In this document: positions 1-53,595 of the stretch, piece by piece
Layout: each line of letters begins with the position of its first letter
How positions within the stretch are numbered: position 1 is the first letter of the stretch
DNA from: Dehalococcoidia bacterium
Lineage (GTDB): Bacteria; Chloroflexota; Dehalococcoidia; SM23-28-2; RBG-16-64-32
Length of the DNA: 64,000 nucleotides
NCBI GenBank assembly: GCA_963665775.2
Contig: CAXXTF010000002.1
Span: forward strand, 224,001-288,000
Direction: 5' to 3'
The notes under the pieces: model-generated
The model's database searches: none
What the model was told of the DNA's origin: nothing
What the model saw: only the letters and a program-made list of their open reading frames with translations
Translations under genes and position numbers: made by a program

Positions 1-297
1 TATCCCTGCTAATCCTGAGCGGAGCGATCCAGAAACCGCCTCAATAGTTCGAGTTGGTCGTCGCCGGGTTCGGCGAGGTCAAAGGCCCCGACATAGCTAA
101 TCGTGTCGCCATCCTGAGGAATATAGCCGCCCCAACCGGGCACCCTGCGGAACTTCGCATTTGGCGCAGCCGCCGTCAAGCTATGCGCACCTGTGGGGGC
201 TCAAAATACGCGCTGATACCCCCGACGTTCGATTTGGCTGCTTAGTACCCGCTGCTCGGCCACCTGGTGGGCCTCGCTCCAAGGCCCAGGGGAAGGG

Positions 298-317
298 ACA
301 CTATTCAGCCATAGCGT
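298..317. repeat. Palindromic 7-6-7 putative recombination site (ACACTAT-tcagcc-ATAGCGT)
   Basis: Inverted arms around a 6-bp spacer; 19 bp (303-321) identical to 28225-28243. Confidence 0.7.
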
Positions 318-521
318 GCGGCTTCGTGGTATGAGCCGCAGCAGGCCGGCCCAGAATCCTCACAACGTCTTGTACCAAGATCTCGTCGTTCGCCTTCGAA
401 TGATTTTCTTGTCAAAGAACCCCAATAAGTTAGCGCTACTATAGCTTGTCTCAATTGACCGTATATGATATATGCCTAACATCAGCCTTAGAGTGGGCTG
501 ACGTTCACGTAAGGAGTTACC

Positions 522-2327
522 ATGGAAGAGAAAAACGGTTACTGGCAACGATACTGGCGCAGGAGGCTGACCCGGCGCACTTTGCTACGCGGCACGGCGC
601 TGGGCGCAGCCGGCCTGACGGCAGCGGCAATCGTCGGTTGCGGGGATGATGAAGAGGGGGTGGCGAGCCCGACGGCGACCCCTGCCGCCACGACTCCTTC
701 TGCCACGACGCCTTCCGCCACGGCGACACCGGTGATCAAGCGGGGCGGCCTCCTACGAATAGCCAACCGTTCACCGATCGCCTCCTTTGACCCTAACAGG
801 TCCACCGGCGGCGGGTCGCTGAACACCTTGGATCTCATTTACAGCCGGCTATTCAAGATGGCCTCGGGGCCCGGTACCCCGGTGTGGACGAGCAAGACGG
901 AAGGGGACTTGGTCAAGTCCTCCGATATCTCCCCCGACGGGCTCGTCTATACCTTCAAGCTCAGGGATAACGTAATGTTCCACCCACCCGTGAGCCGGCT
1001 CATGACAGCCGACGACGTGATTTTCTCCTGGCGACGTTTCAAGGGGGAGATTCCCGGCACTGAACCCGCCGCCGAAGTACAAAGACTTGCCTTTGTCAAA
1101 TCGGTGGAAAAGGTCGACGGCCTGACCGTACGCTTCACTTTGGACGAGCCCATCGGCACTCTCTTTGCCCAGCTCGTAAACCCCCACAGCCTGGCCATCT
1201 TTCCCCAGGAGATCGGCACGGCCTTCGACTCGGCGACGGAGGCAGCGGGGTCGGGACCGTTCATGCTTGAGAAGCACGACATCGGCAGCGTGGTCACTGT
1301 CCGTAGGAACCCCGATTGGCACTTTGGGCCCGATAAGCCCTACCTGGATGGGATCGAGCAGTTCATCATCCCTGAGTACGCCACCCAGTTCACCCAATTC
1401 CTTGGCGGAAATCTTGACCGGCTGACGGCCGTGCGGCCTACGGACTTAAAGCGAGTGATGGACACGGTGGAGGACGTGGTACTGGACATCTATTCCGGAG
1501 GATCGGTGCACGTTGTCGCCTTCTCCGGGAACGAGCCGGCGGCTCCCTGGACAAACCCGCTGGTGCGGCAGGCCCTCTCCATGGCCATCGATCGCGAGAC
1601 CATGGCCGAGGCCGCCTACGACTACACGGGTCTCAAGGCCCTGGGTATAGACGTTGAACCCGTCATAAATAACTTCTTCCCTTCGGGATACACGGACTAT
1701 TGGCTTAACCCACGAGGCACCGTGATTAAGCCGGAGAACGCCCGCTTCTTTAGCTTCGACCAAGAGGGGGCCAAGAACCTCCTGGCGCAAGCCGGCTATG
1801 GGGACGGATTCAGTGCTAAGTTCCACTATGTTACGACCTTCCCCTCGGAATACACGAAGATGGCCGAGCTGATGGTCCAGTATTGGGGCCAGATCGGAAT
1901 CAATTTTACACTGAGTGCGATCGACTACAGTGCTGACTACGCCCCAAAGATTCGCAAAGGTGACTTCGAAGGCCTGGCCTATATCATAGCGGGCGGCTCG
2001 CCCGACCCGGTGGATTTAGTGTCATTCATGTATGCTAAGGACGGCCCGCGCAATCCTAGCCGGGTCGACGACCTCGCCATCCAGGCCGCAATCAAGAAGA
2101 TCCAGCTTAATCCAAGTGAGGCCGAGCGGATTCAAGGATCCCTGGACCTGCAGAACGGACTCCTGCCTGAGAATATGTACTACATACCGACTCCAGGGGG
2201 CTCGGGCCCCGTGATTAACGCTAACCAAGCGTACATGAGAAACGTAATAGAGTATCACACGGTTGGAGGTTCGGGCGTCTACACAAACTCGGTCAACTTC
2301 CCCAACTTCTGGAGGGCCGACGTTTAG
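522..2327 (+). CDS. Peptide/nickel ABC transporter substrate-binding lipoprotein (family 5), Tat-type signal
   Basis: TRRTLL twin-Arg motif, IVGC lipobox, P/T linker, GSGPF and VRQALSMAIDR motifs; GGAG RBS. Confidence 0.92.
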   Translation: MEEKNGYWQRYWRRRLTRRTLLRGTALGAAGLTAAAIVGCGDDEEGVASPTATPAATTPSATTPSATATPVIKRGGLLRIANRSPIASFDPNRSTGGGSLNTLDLIYSRLFKMASGPGTPVWTSKTEGDLVKSSDISPDGLVYTFKLRDNVMFHPPVSRLMTADDVIFSWRRFKGEIPGTEPAAEVQRLAFVKSVEKVDGLTVRFTLDEPIGTLFAQLVNPHSLAIFPQEIGTAFDSATEAAGSGPFMLEKHDIGSVVTVRRNPDWHFGPDKPYLDGIEQFIIPEYATQFTQFLGGNLDRLTAVRPTDLKRVMDTVEDVVLDIYSGGSVHVVAFSGNEPAAPWTNPLVRQALSMAIDRETMAEAAYDYTGLKALGIDVEPVINNFFPSGYTDYWLNPRGTVIKPENARFFSFDQEGAKNLLAQAGYGDGFSAKFHYVTTFPSEYTKMAELMVQYWGQIGINFTLSAIDYSADYAPKIRKGDFEGLAYIIAGGSPDPVDLVSFMYAKDGPRNPSRVDDLAIQAAIKKIQLNPSEAERIQGSLDLQNGLLPENMYYIPTPGGSGPVINANQAYMRNVIEYHTVGGSGVYTNSVNFPNFWRADV

Positions 2328-7278: not shown

Positions 7279-7309
7279 CATAACTCACTCTGGCCGGGAA
7301 CGAAGTCAA
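7279..7309 (-). promoter_or_regulatory. Promoter-like motif TTGACTT-N9/10-CWGAGYGA
   Basis: Recurs at 17021-17049 and 34708-34738, each just upstream of a minus-strand gene. Confidence 0.5.
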
Positions 7310-8550
7310 CGGGTCTTCCCCTCCTTCTCGGCCTTAAGGCCGGTGAATGACTCCCAACGGGCGATCGCTATCCGGCAATAGTGTGGGTCCAGTTCTAGGC
7401 CATAGCAGACCCTCCCTGTCCGCTCGGCGGCGATGAGGGTGGTGCCGGAACCGAGGAAGAGATCGAGGACGATGTCGCCCGGTCGGCTGCTGTTCTCGAT
7501 GGCCCGCTCCACCAGGGCCAGTGGCTTCATCGTGGGGTGCAGCTCCGACTCCGATGGGCGGGGGATCGTCCAAACGTCACCCTGATCGCGGTCGCCGCAC
7601 CAGTGGTGCGCGGCTCCCTCCCGCCAGCCGTACCAGATGGGCTCGTAAGCGCGCTGGTAGTCAGCCCGGCCGAGGGTGAAGCGATCCTTGGCCCAGATAA
7701 TGGTGTCCGACCAGTGGCCGCCAAGTTCCTCCAGGACACGGGAAACTGTCGGCCACTCCTTCGTGGACATGCAGACGTAGAGGGCTCCCTCGACACTGGT
7801 CAAGAGATTCTTGGCCCAAGCCCGGCAGAACGCCTCCCACTCTTCAGGCTCAAGAGCGTCGTTCTTGATTCGGCGCTTGCGGGTGCCGCGCTGCTGGCCA
7901 CCGTGGTCCCCATAGCTCACGTTGTACGGCGGGTCCGTGAAGGCCAAGGAGGCCTGCCGTGTGTCTGCCAGGCGGCCAACGTCGCCGCCCTCGGTAGCAT
8001 CGCCGCACATGATGCGATGGTCGCCGAGTTGCCAGACCTCGCCGCGCTCAACGCCAGGGTCTGGTTGGGCTGCCTCCAGGGCTGCATCGAGGTCAAACGA
8101 CTCGGGGCGGTTCCGTTTCTCGCGGCTGTCGAGGGTGCGGAGCAGGTTCTTGATTTCGTCCTCCGCGAAGCCGGTGAGAGTAATGTCGACATCGGGGGTG
8201 TCCTGGAGATCGGCGAGAAGGCGGGCCAGTAGCTCCTGGTCCCAGTCACCGGCGATGCTGTTGAGAGCCAGGTTCAGGAGCTTGGCCTGCTCGGTAGTAA
8301 TGTTGAGGTAGATGACCGGCACCGTGTCTAGGCCGAGCCGGCGGGCAGCGAGGAGGCGCTGGTGACCGCCGATGACCACCGAGTCCTGGCGCCGGGCGAT
8401 GATGGGGTCAACTAGGCCAAACTCCCGGATGCTGCGGGTGAGCGCATCCAGTTCGGTATCAGAGATGCGGCGGGGGTTAAAGGGGTCGGGGCGCAGATCT
8501 TCAACGCATACGTAATCGACCTCAAGCTCGTCACGAATGCTGCTGGGCAT
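7306..8550 (-). CDS. ParB/Srx-N domain fused to N6/N4 DNA methyltransferase, element A
   Basis: NPR and GHQRL ParB motifs; DPPY, HPTMKP and DLFLGSGTT motifs. Confidence 0.92.
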   Translation of the reverse strand: MPSSIRDELEVDYVCVEDLRPDPFNPRRISDTELDALTRSIREFGLVDPIIARRQDSVVIGGHQRLLAARRLGLDTVPVIYLNITTEQAKLLNLALNSIAGDWDQELLARLLADLQDTPDVDITLTGFAEDEIKNLLRTLDSREKRNRPESFDLDAALEAAQPDPGVERGEVWQLGDHRIMCGDATEGGDVGRLADTRQASLAFTDPPYNVSYGDHGGQQRGTRKRRIKNDALEPEEWEAFCRAWAKNLLTSVEGALYVCMSTKEWPTVSRVLEELGGHWSDTIIWAKDRFTLGRADYQRAYEPIWYGWREGAAHHWCGDRDQGDVWTIPRPSESELHPTMKPLALVERAIENSSRPGDIVLDLFLGSGTTLIAAERTGRVCYGLELDPHYCRIAIARWESFTGLKAEKEGKTR

Positions 8551-10964
8551 CAGAGCACGTCCTCGGTTTGAATGGGCGGTCTCGACTTCTCTTCCAGTTC
8601 ATGGGCGGCTTTGCTGAGACGGTCCCGGTCTGCGCGGCCGACAAACGTTTGCCAGGCCGCTCGTCCCGCAATAACAGTCTCTCCTGGCCCAATCGGGAGC
8701 GCCGGAAATTCCAGTTCCTCCGCCAGCGCGAACGCGTAGGTCTGTAATGGTTGTTTGTCTGTGTCGGGGTGATCCTTGATGCGGTTCAACCGTTCAACCG
8801 CGTCCGCCTCAGCTCCGGTTTCTATATCTATATCCAGAGTGAGGGGCGGTTGAATGCCCGGTTGAATGGGGGTTTCAACCGCGCTTTCAACCGGCTCCTC
8901 GGATTCGGGATGTACCTGTTGATCACCATCCGGTTGAACGGTTGAACGGGAATCCTGCTGGTCGGAGCACACGAGCTCCTCAAGCCTTTCGGGGGTAGGC
9001 AGTGCCGGATGATCGTCCGGTGGAGGTTCGCCCGGTACGAGCCTTGCCGGCTGCCCCTTCTTTGTCTCGAGGTTAACAATATGGCCAAGGGAGATCGCGC
9101 GTTTCACTCGATACCACGAGGTATCCCGGGCCAGCCCAAGCTTCTCGCCGACCGCCTTGATAGTGAGGGGGTGCTGCCCGTCGTAGAGTTCGTGTACGGC
9201 GGCGATGGTCTCCCGAACCTGCTCTGTGAGTCCGCCGCTGGCCGATGCGGAGAAGGTATCGAGCAGAATCTGGCGGGCCACACGGTAGTCGTCGATCTCG
9301 GCGATGATCCTTCCGATGGAGTCACGTTGTCGCTGTATCTGATACAGCAGCGCAACGGTCTGGATTACCGTAAGGAGCTGGCGGAAGTCCCTCCGCATCC
9401 GCACTAATCGGTCGGGCACCGCATTAGCGAGGGCGTGCGCGAATGGAATCGTGACCGTACGGTCGCCGGCGATTTCAAGCCAGCGCTGCAGGTCGATGAA
9501 GGGCGTAAGGTCGTATGCAGGATCGACTCCGTTGACGCTCGCCGCGTGAGATAGGAGGACGGCTCGTGTCTGTCCGGGAGTATCGTCGACAGTCACTGCG
9601 AGGAGGCGGGTGCCCATCTGCTCCCCCAGCCGCCTGGTCGATGTCGTAATCAGCCCGGTGGGGCCGGGCTTTTCGATCCTGCGGGTCTTGAATTGGCCTG
9701 TGGCTGGGTCCTTCTCTACGACGTCGTAGCACATGACGAAATCGGAGGCGATCGAGCGGACGGCGGAAGCGGCCGGCCCGTCTTCCGGGATGGAATCGGC
9801 CTCGCACACGACCACTATCCGATGGGCGAAATCGGCGTCAGCGTAGACAAGGGCTCTGGCGCTGCCCGCCTTCTCCAGGTGATAGGCTTCAGCGGGCATG
9901 AGCTCCAGGGCGGCGTCGACGGCTCGGTTCTTGCCGGCGCTCGAAGGGGCGATGAAGGCGAGGTTTAGTGGCCGCTCCAGGAGGCGTGAAGTGAGGGAAA
10001 TGTAGGCCAGTAGTGGGGGCGTCAGATTGCCCGCGTAGCCACTTGAACTAACGGCCTCTCCAATCTTGTCGAGGAGATCAAGGGCCTGCAAGAGTTCGCG
10101 CACATGTGAGTAGAGCCTTCTAGCCTCGTCGCTCAGCGCGTCGGCCCGGATTTCAGATGCGGGCCTAGCTGAGGCCATCAACATCTCCAATCGAGCCCGA
10201 AACCGCACTGGGTCTCGCTCAACTGCTAGCCACAGGGCGTTCGGGTCTTTTGCCTCTGCCGGGGCCTCGATCATCCGGACATCGGGAAGGTCGGCGGCTA
10301 CCCCGGAAACGAGGCTGTCGCCGCCGCGATCCGGCTCGTGCCAGACGTAGACCTCGTCGATTCCCGCCGCATGGGCTCTCCAAGCCTCCTTCCAGGTACT
10401 CGCCCCGGGAATGCCGAGGGCGGCCAGGCCAGCATTCCAGAGCGTCCAGGAGTCGGATTCCCCCTCCACGAGGATGAGCTTTCCCTCGGATCGTGCCTTG
10501 TCGAGCCGCCAGAGGCCGTAGGGAACGGCCTTGTCGCCCCGCCGCCACGCGAACCGAGGCTCACTAGCAAGACTGAGCCTCTTCCGGAGCGATATGATCT
10601 CTCCGTTTCCGTCCAGGTAGGGCACGTCGACACATTTTGTCCTTCCAGAGCCGAAGATTCCCTCCGCGACGCCGAGTGATCTCAGGAATTCGACCGAGAG
10701 ACCCTTTGCCTCAGCGAGTTCGGACAGGGACAAGCCGGTTGGCCCACGATCAGGTAGCGGGATACCGAGGCGCTGGGCGAGGTCCAACGCGCCGCCACCC
10801 ATACCGCAGACATCGCAGTGCCAAACGGCCTTCGCTTTGTTCCAGCGGGCTGATGGGTGCTGATCGTCGTGCGCTGGGCAGAGGAACCGGATTTCTCCCC
10901 GTTCGGGCTTTCCCTGGCGGGCCATCACAGCTGCCTCGATTTGGGCTAGGAGGTCAGGATCCAC
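8550..10964 (-). CDS. Zn-finger/Toprim primase fused to P-loop ATPase, element A replication protein
   Basis: CPAHDD..CDVC zinc finger, VEGESD and EPDRGG Toprim motifs, APSSAGKN Walker A. Confidence 0.85.
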   Translation of the reverse strand: MDPDLLAQIEAAVMARQGKPERGEIRFLCPAHDDQHPSARWNKAKAVWHCDVCGMGGGALDLAQRLGIPLPDRGPTGLSLSELAEAKGLSVEFLRSLGVAEGIFGSGRTKCVDVPYLDGNGEIISLRKRLSLASEPRFAWRRGDKAVPYGLWRLDKARSEGKLILVEGESDSWTLWNAGLAALGIPGASTWKEAWRAHAAGIDEVYVWHEPDRGGDSLVSGVAADLPDVRMIEAPAEAKDPNALWLAVERDPVRFRARLEMLMASARPASEIRADALSDEARRLYSHVRELLQALDLLDKIGEAVSSSGYAGNLTPPLLAYISLTSRLLERPLNLAFIAPSSAGKNRAVDAALELMPAEAYHLEKAGSARALVYADADFAHRIVVVCEADSIPEDGPAASAVRSIASDFVMCYDVVEKDPATGQFKTRRIEKPGPTGLITTSTRRLGEQMGTRLLAVTVDDTPGQTRAVLLSHAASVNGVDPAYDLTPFIDLQRWLEIAGDRTVTIPFAHALANAVPDRLVRMRRDFRQLLTVIQTVALLYQIQRQRDSIGRIIAEIDDYRVARQILLDTFSASASGGLTEQVRETIAAVHELYDGQHPLTIKAVGEKLGLARDTSWYRVKRAISLGHIVNLETKKGQPARLVPGEPPPDDHPALPTPERLEELVCSDQQDSRSTVQPDGDQQVHPESEEPVESAVETPIQPGIQPPLTLDIDIETGAEADAVERLNRIKDHPDTDKQPLQTYAFALAEELEFPALPIGPGETVIAGRAAWQTFVGRADRDRLSKAAHELEEKSRPPIQTEDVL

Positions 10965-11238
10965 GGGGTCCCTCCACCAGATCGATGTCTATTCCCACAA
11001 CCTCGTCGGTTCGCTCGCCCACATTGGCCCTTGGCCACCGCTCCCACCAGTTGGTGATCGTATCGGAATCTTTCGAAGCGTACTTTAGGCCATGTGCGGT
11101 GAGGGGATGCTTGCCTGACAAAGGGCAGATCTCACCTTTTGGGCATTGGCAGACTCCAACATCGTCAGTCCACCAGATCGGCAGGAGGCACGCGCCCTCG
11201 CGGGCGCGTGCCAGGGCGGCCTGCTGCAGAGGGTTCAC
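10954..11238 (-). pseudogene. N-terminal fragment of bifunctional primase/polymerase (Prim-Pol)
   Basis: GKHP..HG..AS.D...I..WW..WP.ANVG...GIDID; ends just after DxD. Confidence 0.7.
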
Positions 11239-11459
11239 TACCGGTTAAGCCTCCGAAATGGCGGCCCGTCGTCCACTCCACCCGGGTGATGGCGCTTTCT
11301 TGCGCGATACCGGCGATCGCGCTCGAGCCTTCGGGTGCGACGTTCCTGTTCTTTCTCAAGTTTTCGCTGTGCCTGAGCTTCCCTCATGGCCGTGACATCG
11401 GCCTCAAGTCCTGGTAGGGGCGGGTTAACCATGTCGACCAGATCAATCTTGCTTCTCAT
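11238..11459 (-). CDS. Small basic hypothetical protein
   Basis: GGAGG RBS; overlaps both neighbours. Confidence 0.5.
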   Translation of the reverse strand: MRSKIDLVDMVNPPLPGLEADVTAMREAQAQRKLEKEQERRTRRLERDRRYRARKRHHPGGVDDGPPFRRLNR

Positions 11460-11575
11460 GGAACACCTCCAAGCCCACTCGTGCCGGCTACATTCGACCG
11501 ACGGTCGCCAGTCGTTAAGTCGGGCGCTATCATGTCAGGCAGGATGGCAGCCACTGCGCGAATCTCTGGTATCAC
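11456..11575 (-). CDS. 39-aa ORF coupled to the recombinase stop (possible primase N-terminal relic)
   Basis: GTGA overlap with recombinase stop, ATGA overlap with next ORF; ILPDMIAPDL resembles ILPDIIPPEL of the element B primase. Confidence 0.4.
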   Translation of the reverse strand: MIPEIRAVAAILPDMIAPDLTTGDRRSNVAGTSGLGGVP

Positions 11576-13188
11576 AGCTGTAAGACCCTTCGCGCCACTG
11601 TGTAGTTCTGACCTTCACGGGTGCCCCTGCAAGTCGAGACTACGGAGGGGAATCGGTATTCAACGACCGCGCTGGCGTGCTTGCGGCCGTCGCGCAGTTC
11701 CGTCTGCACCGTGATGCGTCTAACGAGCAGACGCACGATTTCTTGACGCTCCTCATCGCGGAGCCCTCCATCCAGGCGGCGGGTTATTTCGGCCAGGAGG
11801 TCGGGCGTCACCTCCAGCGCCTCCTCCGGATCTTCCTCGGGGCCCAAAGCAACAAGCCGCCGCTCTATCTCCGTCCGCTTGGAGGCGATCTCGCCCAAAC
11901 AGGTTTCCAGTTCTTCTGGGGTGAGATGCCCCCGAATGCGGAGGTCAAGGGCCCTCTTACGCTGCTGGTCGAGGTCGCGAATTGCAGCGGTAAGCGTGAT
12001 GGACTCCGCCTCAGCAACGGCTGCCTGGCCGCCGCCGCAGGATTCGATCGCCAGCTCGTCGAGCAGCTCGCCTGGGCTTCGGAGAAAGCGTTCGATGTCG
12101 GACCAGATGAGGGGCTCGATGGTATCGCCTCTGACCGACTTCCCATTGCAACGTCCCTCTATGGGGCCGCGCTCGACTAGCTGGCCGTTGCAGCGATACC
12201 AGGCGGCGCCGTTGCTCGTGCTGCCACAGTAGTTCAGGCCACAGATCCCGCAGCGGATTACGGAACGCAGTAGATAGGTTCGCTTGCTGTTCTTGGGGAT
12301 GATTCGATTGCGGGCCAGGGTTTCCTGGGCGGCGTACCAGACATCATCCGACACCAGGGGCTCGACAGGGGCAGAGATGACTTCCCGCCCGCCTACCCGG
12401 CTGCTACGCCGCCCAAATTGCAGCACGCCGCGAAACACAGGATTGACCACCAGGTTGCGAATGCGACCTGGTCGCCATATTCCTTGCGTTCGTTGGTCAC
12501 GGATGCCCCGGCCGTCTCGCTCGTATACTGTGGGAACACAGAGGAGGTTCAATTCATTCGCAATCCAGCGGCAGCTCTTACCTTCTACGCCCAACCAGTG
12601 GTAGATCCGGCGAACCAGGTGGGCGGCACTCCAGTCGCCCCAGATGAGGGTCTCGTCTGGCATGAGTCGGGCGGTCTGACGTCGTCCTTCCACTCGGTAA
12701 CCTAGGGGCACGATACCGCCGGTGTAGCGGCCTTCCCGTGCGGCGCGGTCCATGCCCCGAGCTGAGTCCGCTAGGAACTGGCGTCGCGCATAGCCAGCCA
12801 TGATGGACTGGAATCCAAAGATCGTCCGGTCGCCCAGCGATTCAGCGACCCCGATCAGCTCAATGCCCAGCAGGTCAACGAAGAGGTTGTAGGTGGTCAG
12901 GAGGTCGACCTCCTCACGGCCGAGCCGGCTCGCCCGCAGCACGATTATCTTGAGGAACTTCCCGGCTTTCGCGTCGGCGATCAACTGGCCGCCGGCGGGG
13001 CGTAATGCCATGGGTATCGTTCCGGAGAGGCCGTCGTCATCGTAGTAGCGGTAAAGGCGGTAATGGGGGTTCTGAGCGAGGAAGCGATCGATGGCCTCCC
13101 GCTGCGTCTTGATGGTCTCGCGGTCGCGCTGGTCATCGCTTGAAACCCGGAGATACGCCGCCACGGGGATGGCTTCTTGGTCTGTCAT
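11572..13188 (-). CDS. Large serine recombinase (integrase); 3' end spans the att site
   Basis: YLRVSS catalytic Ser, DDGLSG, SRLGR, recombinase domain, CGICG Zn ribbon, coiled coil. Confidence 0.95.
   Translation of the reverse strand: MTDQEAIPVAAYLRVSSDDQRDRETIKTQREAIDRFLAQNPHYRLYRYYDDDGLSGTIPMALRPAGGQLIADAKAGKFLKIIVLRASRLGREEVDLLTTYNLFVDLLGIELIGVAESLGDRTIFGFQSIMAGYARRQFLADSARGMDRAAREGRYTGGIVPLGYRVEGRRQTARLMPDETLIWGDWSAAHLVRRIYHWLGVEGKSCRWIANELNLLCVPTVYERDGRGIRDQRTQGIWRPGRIRNLVVNPVFRGVLQFGRRSSRVGGREVISAPVEPLVSDDVWYAAQETLARNRIIPKNSKRTYLLRSVIRCGICGLNYCGSTSNGAAWYRCNGQLVERGPIEGRCNGKSVRGDTIEPLIWSDIERFLRSPGELLDELAIESCGGGQAAVAEAESITLTAAIRDLDQQRKRALDLRIRGHLTPEELETCLGEIASKRTEIERRLVALGPEEDPEEALEVTPDLLAEITRRLDGGLRDEERQEIVRLLVRRITVQTELRDGRKHASAVVEYRFPSVVSTCRGTREGQNYTVARRVLQL
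11602..11643. other. attP-like junction between tandem elements A and B
   Basis: 20-bp arms match 14/20 as an inverted repeat around central TG (11622-11623); 11597-11630 identical to 38852-38885. Confidence 0.85.
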
Positions 13189-16059: not shown

Positions 16060-16998
16060 TTAGAGGCCTATTGCCGCCGCCACCTTATCCCAGCCTCGAT
16101 CCTCCTGTCCCTCTAGCCGTCGCAAGTAAACCGTCGTCACTGCGAGCGAGCTGTGATCCAGGAATTGGCTGACGTCCTCCACAGATTCACCGGCGTCTCG
16201 TCGCAGCTTGGCAGCCGAGTGACGGAGGATGTGAACACCAGCGGGCGGGAGGTCGGCCTTCCGGAGATAGTACCGTAGGTTCCCATAGAAGGTTCCGCTG
16301 GTCAGGTCGTGGCCTCCTCTAGAGTGCTGCGAGGGCCACAGCGACTCCTCCGGACTCATCGTGTATAGATTCTTGCCCCAGGCTGCGAGGGATCGCTCGA
16401 TTGCCTCGAATGCTGGTCGTGGAAGTTCTCTCTTCCCCTGTTTGCCACCCTTGCCTCGGTAGGTGTAGAACAAGCCGCCTGTCTGCAAGATGTCCCCTGC
16501 CTTGAGGTTCAGCACCTCGGAGCGGCGGCGACCAGTCAGCGTCAGGGTCAGGATGATTGCCCGGTCGCGGAGGACAGCTGGGGAGTCCGGAATTACCTCC
16601 AGCAGGCGGCGTATCTCCTCGGCGCTCAGTCCTCTCGGAGGGCTGGGTGAGGTTCTTGGCCGCTCGATCTCGTCGCACGGGTTCGAGGATACGATCTTCA
16701 TGCGGATGAGGAAGCGGTAGAACGAGCTCACGCAGGCAAGCCGGGCACCCACTGTGATCGACGAGGGCTTCTTACCGGAAGGACCGATGCCGTGTGCGAA
16801 GCCGAACACCTCCTGGCTCGTGATCTCGTTTGGAGGCTTGCCCATCGAGCCAAAGAAGTGCTGCAGCATTCTGGAGTAGCTCTCTACCGTGCGACTGGAG
16901 CCACTGCGGCGTTCCTTCTCGGCGAGGAAGGCATAGAAGGCCTGCTGCCAGCCCGGCGTCCGCTCGTCGAAGAGTACAATATCGTCAGTCATGCTCAC
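16060..16998 (-). CDS. Tyrosine recombinase (Xer-like, SAM-like N-terminus plus catalytic domain)
   Basis: RDRAI..TGRRRSE (R), GKGGK (K), HILRH, LDHSS, TTVY (Y). Confidence 0.95.
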   Translation of the reverse strand: MSMTDDIVLFDERTPGWQQAFYAFLAEKERRSGSSRTVESYSRMLQHFFGSMGKPPNEITSQEVFGFAHGIGPSGKKPSSITVGARLACVSSFYRFLIRMKIVSSNPCDEIERPRTSPSPPRGLSAEEIRRLLEVIPDSPAVLRDRAIILTLTLTGRRRSEVLNLKAGDILQTGGLFYTYRGKGGKQGKRELPRPAFEAIERSLAAWGKNLYTMSPEESLWPSQHSRGGHDLTSGTFYGNLRYYLRKADLPPAGVHILRHSAAKLRRDAGESVEDVSQFLDHSSLAVTTVYLRRLEGQEDRGWDKVAAAIGL

Positions 16999-17037
16999 CT
17001 CTTGTTCTCAAGTCAGTAAGCATGTTCGCTCTGACGC

Positions 17038-17057
17038 ACACGAAGTCAAGTTAGTGT
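17038..17057. repeat. 7-6-7 site (ACACGAA-gtcaag-TTAGTGT) overlapping the recombinase -35 box
   Basis: 9-bp arms with 1 mismatch; TTGACT on the minus strand at 17044-17049. Confidence 0.6.
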
Positions 17058-18156
17058 GCACTACTGGTGCGGGTCTGGTGATTTGCGGACGGTGATAGAA
17101 TGCCCCTGGAATGCGCACGGGATCGCTCACGAGGGGAGGACACTCACGAGACGGTTGAACGCCGGCGCTACCAAATGGATCGTCCTTCCTCTGATGCTTA
17201 TGATCGCCGTCGCGGCGGCATCGAGCGGTTGTGCTGGTGGCGGCGATGAGGGCGGCCCTGCAGGTGGGACCCCGACTCTAGCTCCCACAGACAGCCCAAC
17301 GCCCGAATCTACGCTAACGTCCACGCCGACAGCTGCACCGACGATCTCGCCTTTCTCTTCACCGACCGCGACTCTCCAGCCGACATCTACCGCAGTTCCG
17401 CCGCTCGGCTTCACCATCCATTTCATCGACGTCGGCCAGGGCGATGCGACTCTTATTGTCACCGACACCGGTGAGACTTTCTTGGTGGATGGTGGGCGCA
17501 GTAAGACTCGGATCAGGGACCGTCTCGACCGACTTGGAATTGACGAATTGGACGCGATCCTGGTTACCCACCAGGACATAGACCACTTTGCGGGTCTGAT
17601 GGCGGTTCTCGAGGACTATGACATTGAACGGATCTACTGGAACGGCGCGCCAGATGGCTCGACCTTCGACAGCTTCATGACTCTATCCTTGGACGAGGGC
17701 GCGGAGATTTCCGTGATCGGCCGGGGCGACGTGGTCAAGCTGGGAGGAATGGAGATTCAGGTGCTCCACCCAGGTGGGCTAACGGGCGACAAGAACATCG
17801 ACTCCATCGTCCTTCTTGTCCAATGCGGGACAGTTGAGTATCTGCTGATGGGCGATGCGGAGATGGAGTCCGAACAGTCCATGATCGCGGCGGGAATGCT
17901 AGAGGATGTCGAGGTGCTAAAGGTGGGGCACCATGGCTCACGAACCTCAACGTCTGAGGCATTCCTGGATGTTGTCAGCCCCGAATATGCCGTAATCAGC
18001 GCGGGACTAAACAGCCAGTACGGCCATCCCCATCAGGAGACACTGGATGTGCTGAACTCAGCTGGCGTTCAGATCTTCCTTACTGACACGACGGAGGACC
18101 CAGACGGTGTGACGCTGACAACGGACTGCAGCGAGGTCTTGGTCGTTGAACCGTGA
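17056..18156 (+). CDS. ComEC/Rec2-like metallo-beta-lactamase-fold lipoprotein (start uncertain)
   Basis: FIDVGQGD, THQDIDH, KVGHHGS and YGHP motifs; P/T linker. Confidence 0.88.
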   Translation: MHYWCGSGDLRTVIECPWNAHGIAHEGRTLTRRLNAGATKWIVLPLMLMIAVAAASSGCAGGGDEGGPAGGTPTLAPTDSPTPESTLTSTPTAAPTISPFSSPTATLQPTSTAVPPLGFTIHFIDVGQGDATLIVTDTGETFLVDGGRSKTRIRDRLDRLGIDELDAILVTHQDIDHFAGLMAVLEDYDIERIYWNGAPDGSTFDSFMTLSLDEGAEISVIGRGDVVKLGGMEIQVLHPGGLTGDKNIDSIVLLVQCGTVEYLLMGDAEMESEQSMIAAGMLEDVEVLKVGHHGSRTSTSEAFLDVVSPEYAVISAGLNSQYGHPHQETLDVLNSAGVQIFLTDTTEDPDGVTLTTDCSEVLVVEP

Positions 18157-29985: not shown

Positions 29986-30727
29986 GTGAGTCTCCCTTGG
30001 GGAGTTAAATTCTGGCGATTAGCCACTGCCCTGGGACGGCCTTGTGTCGCCCGCATCTCTCATATTCGCTGGACGTTATGATAGGTGTGATTCGCCAAAG
30101 GCCCCCTGTATCGCCTAGATGGCTCCTCATCATCGCTGCGACCGCCCTTCTGGCGTTGGCCTGCGGCCGTGGCCAAGAGCCCACCACCACTGTCCCTCCA
30201 GCCGCCAGTGAGTCGACAGCTGGGGGCACTCCGACGCCGGCACTGACCCCCTCGCCTACGCCTACCTCTACGCCTACTCTGACACCTTCGCTGGTCTCGA
30301 CACCTAGCCCGATGCCGAGCCCCACACCGGGTGTCGAGCCTGACTATACCCCGTTCCCGCCGCCGGGCCTTACTGACCTTCAGGTAAGGGAGCTAATCCA
30401 GCGCGCTTATCTGGTGGCATTCAATTTGAATGTTCCGTACCCTGCTTACTGGGCAGGAGAAACAACATGGACAGCCGTCGTGTACTTGGAACCGAATATT
30501 TACCGGCTCTACGTTGGCGCAGACGGCTCCTACGATGCTCGCATCAACAACGTGCGCCCGCCTGAGGGAACGTTTCGTACGATGATAATTGGGATAGACT
30601 ACGGAAATACGAACATCGGCGAAGTGTTTGACGCCTATTTGGTGGGCGCCCAACGGCGGATCAACGAGGATTATGCCGCATATGCTGCTGCTACTGGGTG
30701 ACCTGCCCCCCTAAACGCTACCACAGG

Positions 30728-31591
30728 CTATGTTAGTGTGGCCATCGCCGTAGTCTCCAGGGATGGCGCGGTGGAGCCCGGCCATGGCACGATCGCTTGC
30801 GGTGCTGGCGGCCGGTAGCCGAGAGCGCTATGCGGGCGCACCTCGTTGTAGTTCCGTCGCCACCGCTCGCAGAGGACCTGTGCTTCCAGCACCGTGTCGA
30901 ACACCTCCCCATTCAATAGTTCATCACGTAGCTTCCCATTGAACGACTCGATGTAGCCGTTCTCCCAGGGGCTCCCGGGCTCGATATACAGAGTCTGCAC
31001 GCCTACCCGCTCTAGCCAGGTCCGGAGCGCACGTGCCGTGAACTCTGGCCCGTTGTCCGAGCGCAGGTAGCGAGGCGTCCCGCGCTCGACGAAGAGCTGG
31101 GCCAGCTCTGCCAGCACGTCATCACTGGTGATCTGCCTCGCCACCTGGATAGCCAGGCACTCCCTTGTGAACTCGTCCAGCACCGTCAAGAGCCGCAGGG
31201 GACGGCCGTCGCTGGTGCGGGTAAACACGAAGTCGTAGCTCCAGACGTGGTTGGGCTCAGTCGGCCTGAGCCTAACGCAGGAGCCATCGGTCAGCCATAG
31301 CCGCCTCCGCTTCGGCTGCTTCGCCGGCACCTTCAGCCCTTCCCGCCGCCAGAGCCGCTCTACCCGCTTGTGGTTCACCCGAAAACCCTCCTCTCGCAGC
31401 AGGGCGGTCACCCGTCGGTAACCGTAGCGCCCGTACTCGGTCGCTAGCTCCACCATCCGCCTCAGCAGCCTCCCTTCATCGTCGGGAGGAGAACCCCACC
31501 GCCGCTGCGTCGATCGCTCCTGCCCCAGGGCCTGGCAGGCCCGGCGCTCCGAGATGACCGCGTGGCCCAACGCATTCCGCACCCAGGCCAC
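30728..31591 (-). CDS. IS3 OrfB DDE transposase
   Basis: YGYRR, WSYDF, SDNGPEF and NGYIESFN motifs. Confidence 0.95.
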   Translation of the reverse strand: MAWVRNALGHAVISERRACQALGQERSTQRRWGSPPDDEGRLLRRMVELATEYGRYGYRRVTALLREEGFRVNHKRVERLWRREGLKVPAKQPKRRRLWLTDGSCVRLRPTEPNHVWSYDFVFTRTSDGRPLRLLTVLDEFTRECLAIQVARQITSDDVLAELAQLFVERGTPRYLRSDNGPEFTARALRTWLERVGVQTLYIEPGSPWENGYIESFNGKLRDELLNGEVFDTVLEAQVLCERWRRNYNEVRPHSALGYRPPAPQAIVPWPGSTAPSLETTAMATLT

Positions 31592-31614
31592 CGCCTGTCG
31601 TCTCTTGGCCGGGC

Positions 31615-31893
31615 TCAGAAGTTTCCCTGCGCCGCCTCCTTTAGGATGGCGTTGTCCAGGGAGAGATCGGCTACCAGCTTCTTCAGCCGCAGGTTCTCCT
31701 GCTCCAGCTCCCGCAGCCGTTTGGCCTGCTCCCTCCTCAGGCCGCCGTACTCCTTCCGCCAGCGGTAGTAGGTCTGCTCTGCCACGCCCAGCTTCCTGCA
31801 GACCTCGGGCACAGCCAGGCCCTTAGCCAGCCCGACCTCCGCCTCCCTCAACTTGTTGATGATCTCCTCTGCCGTGTGATGCTGCCTGCCCAA
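31615..31893 (-). CDS. IS3 OrfA (HTH); -1 frameshift signal GGGAAAC at its end
   Basis: TYYRWRKEYGG, LEQENLRLKKLVADL. Confidence 0.93.
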   Translation of the reverse strand: MGRQHHTAEEIINKLREAEVGLAKGLAVPEVCRKLGVAEQTYYRWRKEYGGLRREQAKRLRELEQENLRLKKLVADLSLDNAILKEAAQGNF

Positions 31894-32584
31894 TCCTTCT
31901 GCCCCCTTTCTCTGGTCCAGAACCCCTGATTACTAACATTGGGCCTGGACTCGTTTTCGGGGGCAAGGTCATGGGTATGACGACACGTTCGTGTCTTTCG
32001 TGAACACGAACATTTTGATATCGTCGTCCGACATAGGCGATCCGACCAGCGCCGCCGACGTTTACGCCTTGCTGCAAGCCCGCGGGTTCAATCAGGACGA
32101 GTACGACATAGTGGCCGTACTGGATTTTGACGCTAACGATCCTAAGGGTGGCTTCTACGACGGCGGCAATTTCATTTATGTGGGTTGGATTTTCGACGAC
32201 TGTAGAAACCCCGAGGATGACACGTTCTGTAAGGAGGGCCAGGGGGTTCTCGATGAGGACGCGACGTATCTCTTAGCGGCTACCATTTATCATCACGAGG
32301 TCGGACACTTCTTCGGATGGGAACATGAGTGGCCGTTCAGGCAATTGCCCTGCTGCCCCACTCTTATCACCGAATCAATACTTTACGGCTGGGGGGACAC
32401 CGACGGTGATGGCATCCCGGAAATCCTGGACCCAACACCATATGGCATGTCAATAGCGGTGCCATCAGGTTAGGCACCCGGCGGTTACTAGGTGTGTAGG
32501 CCTCATCGTCTCCGTTTCGCTGAAAGGCAGCGATCCGCAAGGCGGCTCTACCCACTAGCGGGATATACCGCCATTCTTCCCGCT

Positions 32585-34943: not shown

Positions 34944-36221
34944 CTATCTGACTCTTTCGGCATTTCCACCGCTAAAGCTTTCCCAGCGAGCAATCGCTAT
35001 CCGGCAATAGTGTGGGTCTAGCTCTAGGCCATAGCAGACCCGCCCGGTGCGCTCGGCGGCGATGAGAGTGGTGCCTGAACCGAGGAACAGGTCCAAGACC
35101 ACATCGCCTTGCTGGCTGCTGTTCTCGATGGCCCGCTCCACCAGGGCCAGCGGCTTCATCGTCGGGTGGAGCTCCGACTCCGCCGGGCGCGGGATCGTCC
35201 AGACATCACCCTGGTCGCGGTCGCCACACCAGTGGTGCTTGGCTCCGTCCCGCCACCCGTACCAGATCGGCTCGTACTGGCGCTGGTAGTCGGCCCGACC
35301 GAGAGTGAAGCGGTCCTTAGCCCAGATGATGGTGTCGGACCAGTGGCCGCCCAGCTCGTCGAGGATGCGCGAGACGACCGGCCACTCCTTCGTGCTCATG
35401 CAGATGTAGAGGGCGCCCTCGACACGGGTCAAGAGGTTCTTTGCCCAGGCGCGGCAGAACGCCTCCCACTCCTCCGGCGACAGAGAATCGTTCCTGACCT
35501 GGCGTTTGCGGGAGCCCCGCTGCTGGCCGCCGTGGTCGCCGTAGCTGACGTTGTAAGGAGGGTCAGTGAAGGCCACGGAGGCCTGTCCTGTGTCTACCAG
35601 GCGCTCCACGTCGCCGGTGTCGGTAGCATCGCCGCACATGATCCGATGGTCGCCGAGCTGCCAGACCTCGCCCCCCTCAACGCCAGGGTCTGCCCTGGCT
35701 GCCTCCAGGGCAGCGTCGAGGTCAAACGTCTCCGGGCGGTCCCGCCTCTCACGGACATCGAGCGATCGGAGCAGGTTCTTGATCTCGTCCTCCTCGAAAC
35801 CCGAAAGGGTGAGATCGATGTCGGGAACGCTTCCTAGCTCCGAAAGGAGGCGGGCAAGCAGATCCTGGTCCCAGTCGCCTGTGATGCGGTTGAGGGCCAG
35901 GTTCAGGAGCTTGGCCTGCTCCATAGTGAGTTCCACGAAGATGACTGGAACGGTGGCGTAGCCGAGGCGGCGGGCTGCCAGGAGGCGCTGATGGCCGCCG
36001 ATGACGGTCGCGCCCTCTCGCCGGGCGATGATGGGATCTACCAGGCCAAACTCCTGGACACTGCGGGTGAGGCTGTGCAGCTCGGCCTTGGTGATCCGAC
36101 GGGGGTTTGCGGAGTCGAGGCGGAGCGCGTCGATGGGGACTTGCTCGATGGCGAGGTGCCGATCTCGCTCCTTCATCATGCTAGCCTTCACGCTGACACC
36201 CCCCGCAAATATCACTGACAC
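34944..36221 (-). CDS. ParB-N / DNA methyltransferase, element B (start uncertain)
   Basis: Paralog of 7306-8550. Confidence 0.92.
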   Translation of the reverse strand: MSVIFAGGVSVKASMMKERDRHLAIEQVPIDALRLDSANPRRITKAELHSLTRSVQEFGLVDPIIARREGATVIGGHQRLLAARRLGYATVPVIFVELTMEQAKLLNLALNRITGDWDQDLLARLLSELGSVPDIDLTLSGFEEDEIKNLLRSLDVRERRDRPETFDLDAALEAARADPGVEGGEVWQLGDHRIMCGDATDTGDVERLVDTGQASVAFTDPPYNVSYGDHGGQQRGSRKRQVRNDSLSPEEWEAFCRAWAKNLLTRVEGALYICMSTKEWPVVSRILDELGGHWSDTIIWAKDRFTLGRADYQRQYEPIWYGWRDGAKHHWCGDRDQGDVWTIPRPAESELHPTMKPLALVERAIENSSQQGDVVLDLFLGSGTTLIAAERTGRVCYGLELDPHYCRIAIARWESFSGGNAERVR

Positions 36222-38830
36222 TGACGACGCTCATCCTCATGCCGCACTGGTGACAGCGCGGAACGTCTTGCGGATGTTCGGAGGGCATCTTCCGCCCATC
36301 ATCCGCATTTGAATCTGAATCTGACCGAATAGCATGCGGATGTTGTGCGTATGTTGAGGCCGCGACCTGGGCAACATCCGCAGTTTTATCGGCCTTGGCG
36401 GTCTCCAGGTGCCAGAGCGCCCCCTTGCTGTGCTCGTCCTCGCCGGCCCGGCGTATGAATACGTGGTCGAACCGCCGGTCGCGCCGCTCGGCCAGCGCCT
36501 TGCCCAAACGTGTCCTGAGCGATCGGTCGGAGGCACCTTCCCTGACCCTCTCGAAGACACTGGGGAGTAGGTCCAACCCCTGGGTGAGCAACTGCGCCGC
36601 CTTGACCGGCTCGACCCCGTGCTCATCCCACCAGGCGTGGCAGAAGCTCCGCCATTCCTCGGTCTCGGCGTCGGCGTGGCGGTAAAGCTCTTCGCGGTTG
36701 GCGAGGAAGCCGGCTATGCCAGCGGCCTGTAGGGTGCCACCGACGACAGATGACCATCCCTCGTACGATCCGAGCGGCTTGCCGTCCCAGGCCGGGCGGC
36801 CCCGAGCAAGCCAGTTCTGAATCAGGATGAGGAATGCCCACACGAGTTCGTGACGATGGCGCTGCAGCCAGCCACTGAGGTTTTCGTGCCGAAAGCTGGT
36901 GCGCTCCCAGGGTCTGTCAACCTTCGCGTCGAGCCGAATCCACACCGCCCGTCGGGCGATCTCGTCGCCCATGTGGAGGTTGTTTCCCGTCGCTAGCCAC
37001 ACTGCCCGGTTCGGCAGCTCGATGGTTTGGGTCTTGCCGAGCAGACGGTCAGACCAGATCGTAGCCGTCAGCAGTGCGGCAAGGGTGCCAGATTCGAGGC
37101 GGCGCTTAATGTTATCGAAGAGACCGATAGGGCTGCCGGCCAAGAGGAGAGCGGTGATCCGCTTTCTCAGCTCCTCTTCGTTGCGGGCCTCCGTCATAAC
37201 ACCTGGCACTGTGCCGCTCGTGATGATCCCGATTCCAGCGGTCAGCAGGCCCTTCCCCGTACCAGCTGCTGGCGCGTCTATCGCAAAGAGCGGCGTAGGT
37301 CCGTCGATCATCTCGCGGGTGATGGCGGTGATGGGCGCGGCCATAGCGTTGGCCCGCGACGCATCTTCTGCAAAGGGAAAGTCGGCTAGCCACTCTTGGC
37401 CGATGAGCTGCTTTGCCCGTTTCAGATCCGTAGCGTCCGGTCGATCGGGGACGCATGGGACTGGTTCCCCACTTGGCTCGTAGTACAGGCCTGTGCTTGG
37501 CTGGTATCCCACGTGTGTGACGAGCGTGCCGTCGGGAGCAAAGGTGGGCGTGCCGATGACGCCGCGGAGCACAGGAAGGAGCTTGGGCAGCGCCTCCATA
37601 TCCTCGATGACATCACGCGGTGGCCGGGCTGGCTTCGGCCCGTCATCGGTCAGCTTGACCCAGTCTGCAATGCGATCTAGTCGCCCCTTTAGCCCGGGAA
37701 GACCCAGGTGCACTATTCGCGCCGGGCCACGGTCGCGCCGCACCTCCGCAATGGAGTCCATGCTCAAAGAATCTTGGCGGGTCGTTGCATCTGTGCAGGG
37801 CCTGCCAGGCGTCGTCAGCGATCTCGTGCAGGTGTCGATTGGAGATTACGATTCGAGGTAGATCAGCCTCTGGTGCCGGCATAGAGGCGGCTGGATGTGG
37901 GCCCGCCCCGGACGGACTACGAGGGGCGGGAGAAGCGCCCGTGCTGACGGCTTTCTCTATCGTCCCTTGTCCGTAGGTTCGGCCATCGCCATGATGCCGC
38001 TCGTCCCACTTCTCGCGATACAGGCCTGATCGCCGGAAGAGTCCGTCCATGCGGCCTGCGTCGCCTCCGGTCCAATACGCGAGTTGCGACGCTAGGGCCA
38101 GATCAGCCTCACTCTGCGAGGGGTACTCACTCCAGTCCCCGTTCCATAGGCGCTCGAAACGGGCTCCGTTCGCGGCATTCCTGGCCCGCTGGATGATCTC
38201 AAGGTCATCGATGTGGATGGGCTCTCGGTCTTCCGGTTCTCTTCGCCTCGCTTCGGGTTTGAGTCGGCTGTGGAGCTGAGCGATTTCAGCTGGCCGCTGT
38301 TCGATAGAGAGTGGCGTTTCTGGGAGATGGATGCCGGTTACTGTGAAGTAGCGGGCCCTGTCGTACATTTCGATGTGGCCGACCTTCGCGCTGGAGGGCA
38401 ATGTACCCTCGACGAATATCTTGGCGCCGCGCCCCGAGGGGGAGACCTCGGTGTAGCTATCCAGGAGAGAGATGATCTCGCAGGCCCAGGGCTCTATGTC
38501 GGCGGTTTCCGGGTCGCGACACTTGTCGAGGTCGATTCCGGCGTACGGGTCACCTGGCGTGAAAACGAATCCGACGCCAGCCGCTCGCTTCCCCTTCACT
38601 AGCCGTAGAGCTTCGTCGTACGTTCCCCATGTCGCGCTATCTGTTGACGATGCTATTCCGCCTGTGTGCGGGTTGAGGGGAGGCTTCGTGAGCTTCCCGT
38701 CTCGCTCTCGCCACCTCCAAGCGACCCATTGTCGCCGGGACTTGAGTTCAGGGGGTATGATGTCTGGCAGAATGATGGGCATCGCGGTAGCATCGGTCGC
38801 GCCGTCCGTCCGTCGGGATGCAAGCGTCAT
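36181..38830 (-). pseudogene. NrS-1-like primase-polymerase plus P-loop helicase-like domain, split by a frameshift near 37760
   Basis: QWVAW..TKPP, GIDLD, YTEVSPSG.G, SQSEADLAL; second ORF has AAGTGKG; frames join as FEHG/DSIAEV. Confidence 0.7.
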
Positions 38831-38885
38831 AGCTGCAAGACCCTCCGGGCGACTGTGTAGTTCTGACCTTCACGGGTGCCCCTGC
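38827..38885. other. Right attachment junction of element B, carrying the integrase 3' tail
   Basis: 34-bp identity with 11597-11630; minus strand encodes TREGQNYTVARRVLQL*. Confidence 0.88.
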
Positions 38886-48916: not shown

Positions 48917-49361
48917 CGGCAGTTCCACTCTGAGACTCCTTCAGCAACCCAGGGTAGCGGGCAGGGCGGGGCAAAGGAGGAGAAGGGACGAGATGAACGC
49001 CAGGCTCGGTCAGGCGATGTCTCAACGCTGGCCCATTACCTGATTGAGTCATCCCTCCAGATACGGATGGGATTTTGGCACCCCACAGGCCTCCTACGTC
49101 AACGATGTTCCTCAAACCTAGTATGGCTCGTTGATCCCTGCGCGGGGCGCGGTGCTAACGTCGCCCGCCGCCAGCCTGACGGAACTTGGCGACTGGTCAT
49201 TCACCACGACCTCGGTACGGATTGATCCAGCTTCTGCCGGCTGCTACCCTAGCACCGCTAGTGCTAGTTGGGGGAGCCCGATGCGGCTATTCGTCGACAA
49301 TGACCTGAATTGGCCAGGCGAATCGGTGGCCTATACTGGCTTTGCACAATAAACCCCGTTT

Positions 49362-50594: not shown

Positions 50595-50699
50595 GTCTGC
50601 TTCCCCCCTTAACTTACCTAGCAGTATATTACCACCAAGGGCTTGCAATGTCAACCTTGTGAGCATATACTACAAAGGGATTACTACTAGGGGTGCAGA

Positions 50700-50846
50700 A
50701 TGGCCATTATTGCGATGAAAGGGTATGCCTGTGAGCGATGTGAGCATAAGTGGGCACCCAGGGCATTAGGCCAGGAGCCGAAGGTATGCCCGAAGTGCAA
50801 GAGTCCTTATTGGAACACTCCTCGCAAAGCAACCAAGACCGGCTAG
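50700..50846 (+). CDS. 48-aa Zn-ribbon protein
   Basis: MAIIAMKGYACERCEHKW...CPKCKSPYWN; below the ORF-track cutoff. Confidence 0.75.
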   Translation: MAIIAMKGYACERCEHKWAPRALGQEPKVCPKCKSPYWNTPRKATKTG

Positions 50847-50855
50847 GAGGCAAGC

Positions 50856-51731: not shown

Positions 51732-51737
51732 ACTGGC

Positions 51738-52553: not shown

Positions 52554-52558
52554 GCAAG

Positions 52559-53320: not shown

Positions 53321-53595
53321 ATACTACCCGTCGCAGAGTTTTTGTCCAAGGCCGCCGTTCCCATTAAGAATTATTTGTGCAGACCGTTGATTATTTGTGC
53401 AGGACGCCTTTTATGTGCAAAGCCGCCTATACTGTTATCATTGCACCAGCAGGCAGGGCATTCGACATCCTTTCCTATCCTGACGAGTGCTGCGATCTGC
53501 CTCTGGGGGGAGATGATCCCAAAGGTATCTCAGAGGCCAGTCGGGGCCGCCGGAGAGGTCGAGCGGGAAGCTAGTCAGGCGCGAGTAATGTAGTC

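Follow-up and report, generated by a model that had tools for sequence, protein, structure and literature searches.

In SSV1-type archaeal tyrosine integrases the attachment site of the circle (attP) lies inside the integrase gene, which is whole only in the circular form; insertion cuts the gene into two large parts and destroys the enzyme. Mycobacteriophage BPs carries attP in its repressor gene, and integration changes the C-terminus of the repressor, removing a degradation tag. When Tn916 and Tn4451 circularize, the joining of their ends links genes at one end to a promoter at the other, and tycheposons are replicative elements that carry cargo and build arrays; in both cases the recombinase protein is unaltered. 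The Mx8 and SSV tyrosine integrases have been cited as extending across attP (PMC4383910), and insertion of Mx8 (IntP/IntX) recombines the gene so that its 3′ end changes, and the enzyme is described as altered, not inactivated (PMC6070905). Among serine integrases, dsiB of the Dehalococcoides ssrA islands is reported always to overlap attL at its 3′ end and to be fully functional perhaps only in circular form or with an adjacent island upstream of it; the overlapping portion was judged divergent and unlikely to code (McMurdie et al. 2011, PMC3146451). ComM/YifB (Mg-chelatase) genes are targeted by 12.4% of predicted site-specific large serine recombinases (LSRs), and competence genes are enriched among LSR targets (Durrant et al. 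2022, PMC10083194). Here we describe a 64,000-nucleotide stretch of contig CAXXTF010000002.1 from a Dehalococcoidia bacterium, hereafter the window, in which two integrative elements, A and B, adjoin at an interrupted comM gene, and in which the LSR gene at their junction, int_B, spans attP so that insertion exchanges the last 16 codons of the gene, called here the tail.

The comM elements resemble the published descriptions of the DsiB islands in belonging to the same phylum, in having a serine integrase of ~540 amino acids on the reverse strand at attL, in carrying ParB, methylase and primase-like genes and in standing in tandem. They differ in that the islands target ssrA, carry a second small recombinase (DsiA) and hold their module together at attL, whereas the comM elements split the module between their two ends. 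The overlapping portion of dsiB is divergent, whereas the far-end tail of the comM elements is conserved. Among the open reading frames (ORFs) scanned for domains there was no second small serine recombinase of the DsiA kind. Mx8, a myxophage studied by Tojo (1996) and Magrini (1999), shares with the comM elements an attP within int and a new C-terminus upon insertion, but it is a phage with a tyrosine recombinase and a tRNA-region target. The C-terminal piece exchanged in Mx8 is also much larger than a 16-residue tail. The SSV1 enzyme belongs to another family and another domain of life, and the exchange in the comM elements is limited to an accessory tail of 16 residues. The LSR elements of Durrant et al. 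share the comM target, and the available portion of that paper does not mention attP inside an LSR gene (PMC10083194). The sequence-only reading of the window knew of no characterised serine integrase of this kind, and our literature search likewise yielded no characterised case and no serine integrase with attP inside its gene beyond that of McMurdie et al.; the overlap itself, however, was already in print for dsiB (PMC3146451), and the Mx8 precedent had gone unnamed. The design is not new in kind: it is a version, directed at comM, of an arrangement described in print before. What the present locus adds is a far-end tail that is conserved as protein and lies beyond the canonical fold, an attP footprint that coincides with a predicted flexible linker, and an insertion that cuts the integrase off from its replication operon.

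The features of the junction and the target gene, in window coordinates, are these:
11572..13188, minus strand: int_B, a large serine recombinase of 538 amino acids (uninterrupted ORF, Pfam domains, AlphaFold2 model)
11572..11622, minus strand: first tail copy, codons 523-538 (TREGQNYTVARRVLQL) plus TGA, from translation
11600..11645, no strand: attP-like junction, the P arm of A (11600-11621) and the P′ arm of B (11624-11645) around a central TG
11622..11630, no strand: 9-bp core TGCCCCTGC, from the exact identity of attL (on contig C1), the A|B junction and attR
38827..38877, minus strand: second tail copy, at the right-hand end of B and adjoining the comM 3′ half, encoding the same 16 residues
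38877..39353, plus strand: comM 3′ half, 158 amino acids, beginning at the CPC codons and joining the half on contig C1

Codons 1-522 of int_B come from element B, and codons 523-538 with the stop codon come from the right end of the neighbouring element A. The product contains the Resolvase (PF00239, 5.7e-20), Recombinase (PF07508, 5.8e-14) and Zn_ribbon_recom (PF13408, 3.7e-09) domains, all passing their cut-offs, and residues Y12, R14, V15 and S16 are invariant in all 43 aligned full-form integrases described below. The structural model places a coiled coil in the zinc-ribbon domain (helices 372-418 and 424-447) that superposes on that of the LI integrase 5uae_B (Z 8.8, root-mean-square deviation 0.8, 56 aligned residues). 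With a catalytic domain, a recombinase domain and a zinc ribbon bearing a coiled coil, int_B has the domain set of an LSR, and the att junctions, as sequence footprints of past recombination, make it a putative catalyst of attP × attB recombination.

The junctions attL, A|B and attR share exactly 9 bp, so the crossover is not fixed by identity alone. We found that dyad symmetry is sharpest at the TG at 11622-11623, where 14 of 22 flanking pairs are complementary (3-11 at 31 other centres), which supports the earlier placing of the crossover at this TG inside the integrase 3′ end; it falls between codons 522 and 523. The imperfect dyad arms around a non-palindromic central dinucleotide point to an LSR attachment site, and with its 22-bp arms the attP-like site spans integrase codons 515-530. 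The 9-bp core encodes CPC in comM and, on the other strand, part of CRG(T) in the integrase.

The genome (G000) consists of two contigs, C1 and C2, both of which end in insertion-sequence copies. The comM 5′ half (354 amino acids) lies on C1 in the region G000:C1:762186-764949 together with a second integrase, and the two halves rejoin seamlessly in frame (...FMLLAAMNSCPC|GYYGD...), as would be expected of a comM-targeting LSR element. The C1 integrase stands on the strand opposite to the adjoining comM 5′ half and is 93% identical to int_B over residues 1-524. Its product, 530 amino acids long, ends ...VVSTCRG+RSSWRPGA, where the last 16 residues are replaced by 8 from the comM antisense strand, and int_B at the tandem junction ends ...VVSTCRG+TREGQNYTVARRVLQL. 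Both ends had been predicted from the window alone, the comM-antisense C-terminus for an inserted copy and the full form for a tandem junction. The predicted junction between the comM 5′ half and element A also exists, but on contig C1 at 762.2-764.9 kb, outside the window and its contig. The two integrase copies are nearly identical in their coiled-coil part (window 11797-12144, codons 349-464), with a proportion of synonymous differences (pS) of 0.00-0.02 against 0.25-0.33 in codons 1-232, which suggests a recent gene conversion between them.

The tail was found where it had been noticed before, at the right ends of both elements. The two copies differ at positions 11575, 11581, 11590, 11593 and 11596, all five at third codon positions and all five synonymous, as first claimed; counting by the method of Nei and Gojobori (12.7 synonymous and 35.3 non-synonymous sites) gives 5 synonymous against 0 non-synonymous changes, with a probability of about 0.0013 under random placement. 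Between the window tails pS is thus 0.395 and the non-synonymous proportion (pN) is 0, compared with 0.183 and 0.034 for the int body. The 22-bp P arm is 100% identical in the two copies, all five substitutions fall outside it, and no further copy occurs in the genome when up to 4 mismatches are allowed. In the 60 nucleotides beyond the tail stop codon only 18 are identical, which is the level of chance.

The two C-terminal forms recur among homologues. A protein search with the integrase returned 687 homologues at E ≤1e-20, and the following concerns the best 120 of these together with the query (121 sequences). The 120 are 50-66% identical to the integrase, except for P0002 (99%), and their few named sources are Chloroflexi, Dehalococcoidia or Limnocylindrales. 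Sorting the C-termini by script gave 47 full, 70 antisense and 4 other; reading row by row then moved P0079 to the full and P0100 and P0111 to the antisense class, so that 48 carry the full tail with its motif ..[NSGC]Y....R[RT][VIL].., 71 end in a comM-antisense type (e.g. GRDSWRPPA) and 2 are unclear. Either form can occur among close relatives: P0017 has a full tail and P0023 an antisense one, and they share 84% identity in an alignment that runs no further than ...VVSTCTG, at the crossover codon. Of 89 related loci, 38 have the 5′ end of comM, in antisense, overlapping the 3′ end of int; one of these is L014 from an unpublished genome (G244). In another locus (L022) the comM 5′ half is itself split, with residues 199-354 (7823-8290) beside the integrase and residues 1-199 (16853-17449) ~8.5 kb further on, suggesting that the gene has taken a further insertion of another kind.

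When 43 of the 48 full forms are aligned (P0002, P0076, P0084, P0094 and P0103 were left out), Y529 and R534 prove invariant in every sequence at 49-61% identity. The codon for R534 is AGG, AGA, CGC, CGT or CGA, thus both AGR and CGN, and an invariant arginine with mixed codons therefore points to a constraint on the protein; the Tyr codon of the tail is always TAC. Conservation of the tail as protein in homologues, the lack of which had been named in advance as a refuting result, is thus borne out. These comparisons show an integrase gene that spans attP and whose product differs by insertion state, a design that is family-wide in Chloroflexota. The extreme C-termini vary by subclade (-LQL, -IAA, -GRQKVAVG, -GSGKKP), which makes a conserved C-terminal degron unlikely: the -IAA and -LAA ends resemble the ssrA tag, but other subclades end otherwise, and we rejected degradation as a general mechanism. 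BPs-type integration-dependent immunity was likewise set aside, the gene here being an integrase and its extreme C-termini not being conserved between subclades. Two close contigs in IMG/VR, L107 and L108, each carry a full-form integrase, and comM was not found within the range covered. Both lack a terminal repeat and are thus no proof of a free circle.

We also examined far ends, where an element borders the comM 3′ half and where a single insert would be expected to retain a tail that matters in the circle alone. The sample comprised 11: one complete 10.6-kb element (L039), three from a set of five genomes, five from a second set of five genomes, and two array ends. An intact tail frame with the motif was found in 10 of the 11, for example TPEGQNYTMARRVVHL, GTPASQNYTILRRVVPL (from an element whose integrase is 39% identical to that of the window) and GIRVGQNYNKPLRRVVVM. 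The query used did not find the comM 3′ half in G301, G304, G307, G309 and G310. Variability across 30 array copies from a single subclade stands at 0.09 within the tail and 0.35 past the stop, and tail conservation reaches ~50 bp from the crossover centre and ends at the stop codon. From the sequences we infer that the tail is a conserved, selected peptide kept for the excised or array-internal state.

The AlphaFold2 model of int_B, built from 43 sequences (mean predicted local distance difference test score, pLDDT, 81.5; predicted template-modelling score, pTM, 0.45), has a hairpin at residues 489-511, then a segment (517-528) where pLDDT falls below 50, and lastly a strand (532-537), with a mean pLDDT of about 79 in the last block (531-538). 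The attP footprint, codons 515-530, nearly coincides with the low-confidence linker at 517-528. The best solved match is the SPbeta integrase 9dxh_A (Z 20.0, root-mean-square deviation 9.8, 469 aligned residues, model 3..516 to chain 9..537). None of the solved LSRs aligns beyond about residue 516-528 of the model, and the tail is therefore read as an accessory extension, without which the inserted form keeps every canonical domain. F513, in the invariant motif YRFP, is close to the cut and lies by position roughly near SPbeta F532, without a residue-level alignment; F532 has been linked to directionality control (PMC11722253). A profile search aligned the SPbeta integrase to profile position 499 only, giving no residue equivalence for the tail or F532, and a phmmer search of solved structures with P0001 matched catalytic domains only.

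The tail is followed by replication genes, listed here for both elements:
37643..38830, minus strand: element B primase-polymerase-like gene (NrS-1 polymerase HBD domain; DNA primase in PHROG), the first gene past the tail in the circle
36181..37767, minus strand: element B primase/polymerase C-terminal-like protein of 528 amino acids, within the replication module 34944..37767
34944..36221, minus strand: element B fusion of ParB and an N6/N4 methylase, co-oriented in the replication module
7306..11575, minus strand: element A right-end operon, a chain of overlapping ORFs
11456..11575, minus strand: element A ORF of 39 amino acids, whose GTG start overlaps the tail TGA
following the 39-amino-acid ORF, minus strand: element A ORF of 73 amino acids, in the operon chain
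10954..11238, minus strand: element A ORF of 94 amino acids, an apparent Prim-Pol N-terminal remnant matching the first 66 of 158 profile positions only
8550..10964, minus strand: element A CHC2 primase of 804 amino acids, in the operon chain
7306..8550, minus strand: element A ParB-methylase, in the operon chain

The tail TGA overlaps the next start codon as ATGA in element B and GTGA in element A. The same stop-start overlap occurs in relatives (L100 with ATGA, L101 and L102 with GTGA, and L108), where a Prim-Pol/D5 gene follows. These same-strand overlaps imply that in the circle int heads an operon crossing attP, which insertion cuts 16 codons before the int stop, and insertion separates int from the primase and ParB-methylase genes on the same strand. 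In element A the 94-amino-acid ORF looks like a remnant of the replicase that directly follows the tail in relatives, and a CHC2-type primase seems to have replaced that enzyme. A third methylase-primase module lies at C2:966474-970071, 84.6% identical to window 7323-10920 and without a matching P arm. Element B also encodes a tyrosine recombinase (16060..16998, minus strand) with a copy in the C1 element, the presumed left part of element A (L103:4482-5420, ~86% nucleotide identity), and the two may resolve multimers of the circle. Small ORFs near int, candidates for directionality factors, were without any Pfam or PHROG match.

Tandem arrays at comM, as they stand in the assemblies, were seen in five genomes, which were chosen because they hold full-form copies and are no guide to the frequency of arrays; all are metagenome assemblies. 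In OZ244593.1 (G306), 9 integrases lie within 407.5 kb between the comM 3′ and 5′ halves at a spacing of 25-74 kb, and its elements therefore differ. In OZ253578.1, a 3.80-Mb chromosome, 22 integrases extend over ~970 kb across the record start; two of them are inverted and one is degraded. The array loci L024-L099 are in OZ253578.1 and OZ244593.1 (G306, G307), and a further three assemblies hold 3, 2 and 2 integrases. Each of the five arrays has exactly one truncated copy, at one array end; comM 5′ was shown beside it in four of the five, and in the fifth it was not caught in a locus. Such arrays appear to be the main source of the full-form proteins found in databases. The best explanation of the elements is that they are cargo-carrying, self-replicating integrative elements of Chloroflexota that insert at the comM CPC codons by means of an LSR.

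The mechanism that we propose is as follows. The circle, or an array-internal copy, encodes Int-538 with a conserved accessory tail, predicted to be a short strand on a flexible linker that is itself encoded by attP DNA. In the copy beside the comM 5′ half the last 16 residues are swapped for 8 comM-antisense residues, and this inserted form, in which all canonical LSR domains are present in the model, is probably active, with activity or directionality probably changed by analogy with Mx8 IntP/IntX. The sequence-only reading had likewise suggested that insertion could switch directionality or protein stability. The replication genes would lose the int promoter until excision and may then fall silent, and array-internal copies would regain the tail from the left neighbour. 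We prefer the reading that the arrangement has a regulatory role, combining an altered enzyme with an uncoupled replication operon; it is plausible, and we give it a probability of roughly 50%.

Several observations weigh against a regulatory role. The far end of L187 (G285:C1:362963-366427), DIRAESCLHLVVSLSLA, is the sole one of the 11 without the motif; its integrase, 37% identical to that of the window, belongs to the most distant comM-targeting relative examined. Some inserted forms run on for 60-110 junk residues (P0057, P0061, P0086, P0091 and P0118), and with tails so variable and sometimes so long the inserted C-terminus is therefore not itself selected. The earlier claim of purifying selection on the tail holds for the window pair, where pN is 0, but not for the 30 array copies, which belong to the IAAS subclade and have a pN/pS of 0.96 in the tail compared with 0.63 just upstream; there selection would not be simply purifying, or attP constraint would depress pS. 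We did not accept the pairwise value of 0.96 as a clean test, the attP role of the same bases lowering synonymous change. In the model, with its pTM of 0.45, the pairing partner of the tail strand is not discernible. Element A is split over two contigs with its integrase end on C1, and the window array is thus resolved only in part.

The alternative that survives best, although we still consider it unlikely, is that the overlap is a neutral by-product of a lack of intergenic space and of the resemblance to the comM CPC codons, such that the tail-less enzyme works the same and nothing is regulated. It would accommodate several of the points above, namely the retention of all canonical domains without the tail, the variable and sometimes long junk of the inserted forms, the low confidence of the linker encoded by attP and the pN/pS near 1 in one subclade. 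It fits poorly with tail residues that are invariant across codon families, with a strand predicted beyond the attP footprint and with intact tails at 10 of 11 far ends, and in the one comparable reported case, Mx8, integrase behaviour did change (PMC6070905).

We regard as distinctly improbable a more specific role, in which the tail is a built-in switch of directionality and site choice, tethered beside the YRFP surface of the second DNA-binding domain. If this were true, the tail would hold the enzyme in integrative mode, and its loss would shift the enzyme to excision or to attP × attL/attR and attP × attP partners with no separate directionality factor. Relaxed choice of this kind would explain how as many as 22 heterogeneous elements, ~1 Mb in all, come to stand at a single comM gene.

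Only slender odds attach to a suicidal lock-in resembling that of SSV1, in which loss of the tail inactivates the enzyme and a single insert can leave only if a superinfecting element or another copy next to it in an array provides full-length enzyme. Truncation is confined to the end copy of each array, the growth of arrays to as many as 22 copies suggests build-up without loss, and the closeness of F513 to the cut, roughly at SPbeta F532 by position only, would also agree with inactivation. Against it, only 16 residues past the canonical fold are exchanged, and the intact far-end tails of single inserts argue that these elements either pass through the circle regularly or inserted recently. 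A split integrase of the SSV type was rejected on the same grounds, residues 523-538 alone being exchanged and solved LSRs aligning to ~516-528.

It is very improbable that conservation acts on the DNA only, with the tail being no functional peptide but an in-frame reading of the attP P arm. The identity of the first 22 bp of the tail region between copies and the constant TAC for Tyr fit this view, the N/S-Y codons lying where the second DNA-binding domain is expected, by inference from PMC11722253, to bind attP. All five differences, however, lie outside the 22-bp arm and are synonymous, conservation extends to ~50 bp and ends at the stop (variability 0.09 vs 0.35), and R534 is written with both AGR and CGN codons.

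An assembly artefact, in which a short repeat led to a chimeric A|B junction, is scarcely credible even in a genome rich in insertion sequences, with both contigs ending in them and element A split over contigs at a 3-kb paralogous gene, since a 961-nt contig of an independent run from another study (X5) covers 10744-11704 and bridges the junction with 4 differences, at least half of the junction's sampled words are present in 15 runs from 6 studies (P1-P6), and the same architecture occurs in other assemblies. Contigs in 3 of 4 runs examined stop at 11626 because the repeated arm branches the assembly graph. The paralogous gene encodes a molybdopterin oxidoreductase (C1:782060-785035 vs C2:218803-221778, just left of the window; 97.9% identical) and is likely the point of a rearrangement or mis-join that splits element A. 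The genome also holds dozens of near-identical 1.27-kb and 1.7-kb insertion sequences, one rve-type insertion sequence lies within element B (window 30699-31971), and a 4-kb stretch (window 49338-53425) is 99.5-100% identical in inverted orientation to C1:793220-797287.

Serine integrases, widely used in genome engineering, normally depend on a separate factor for their directionality. A family whose C-terminus toggles with insertion state provides two natural isoforms to compare, and such a comparison would test the idea raised in 2011 for dsiB. More surprising than the integrase design itself is the by-catch of very large arrays. Together with the inactivation of comM, they may shape competence and genome size in environmental Chloroflexota.

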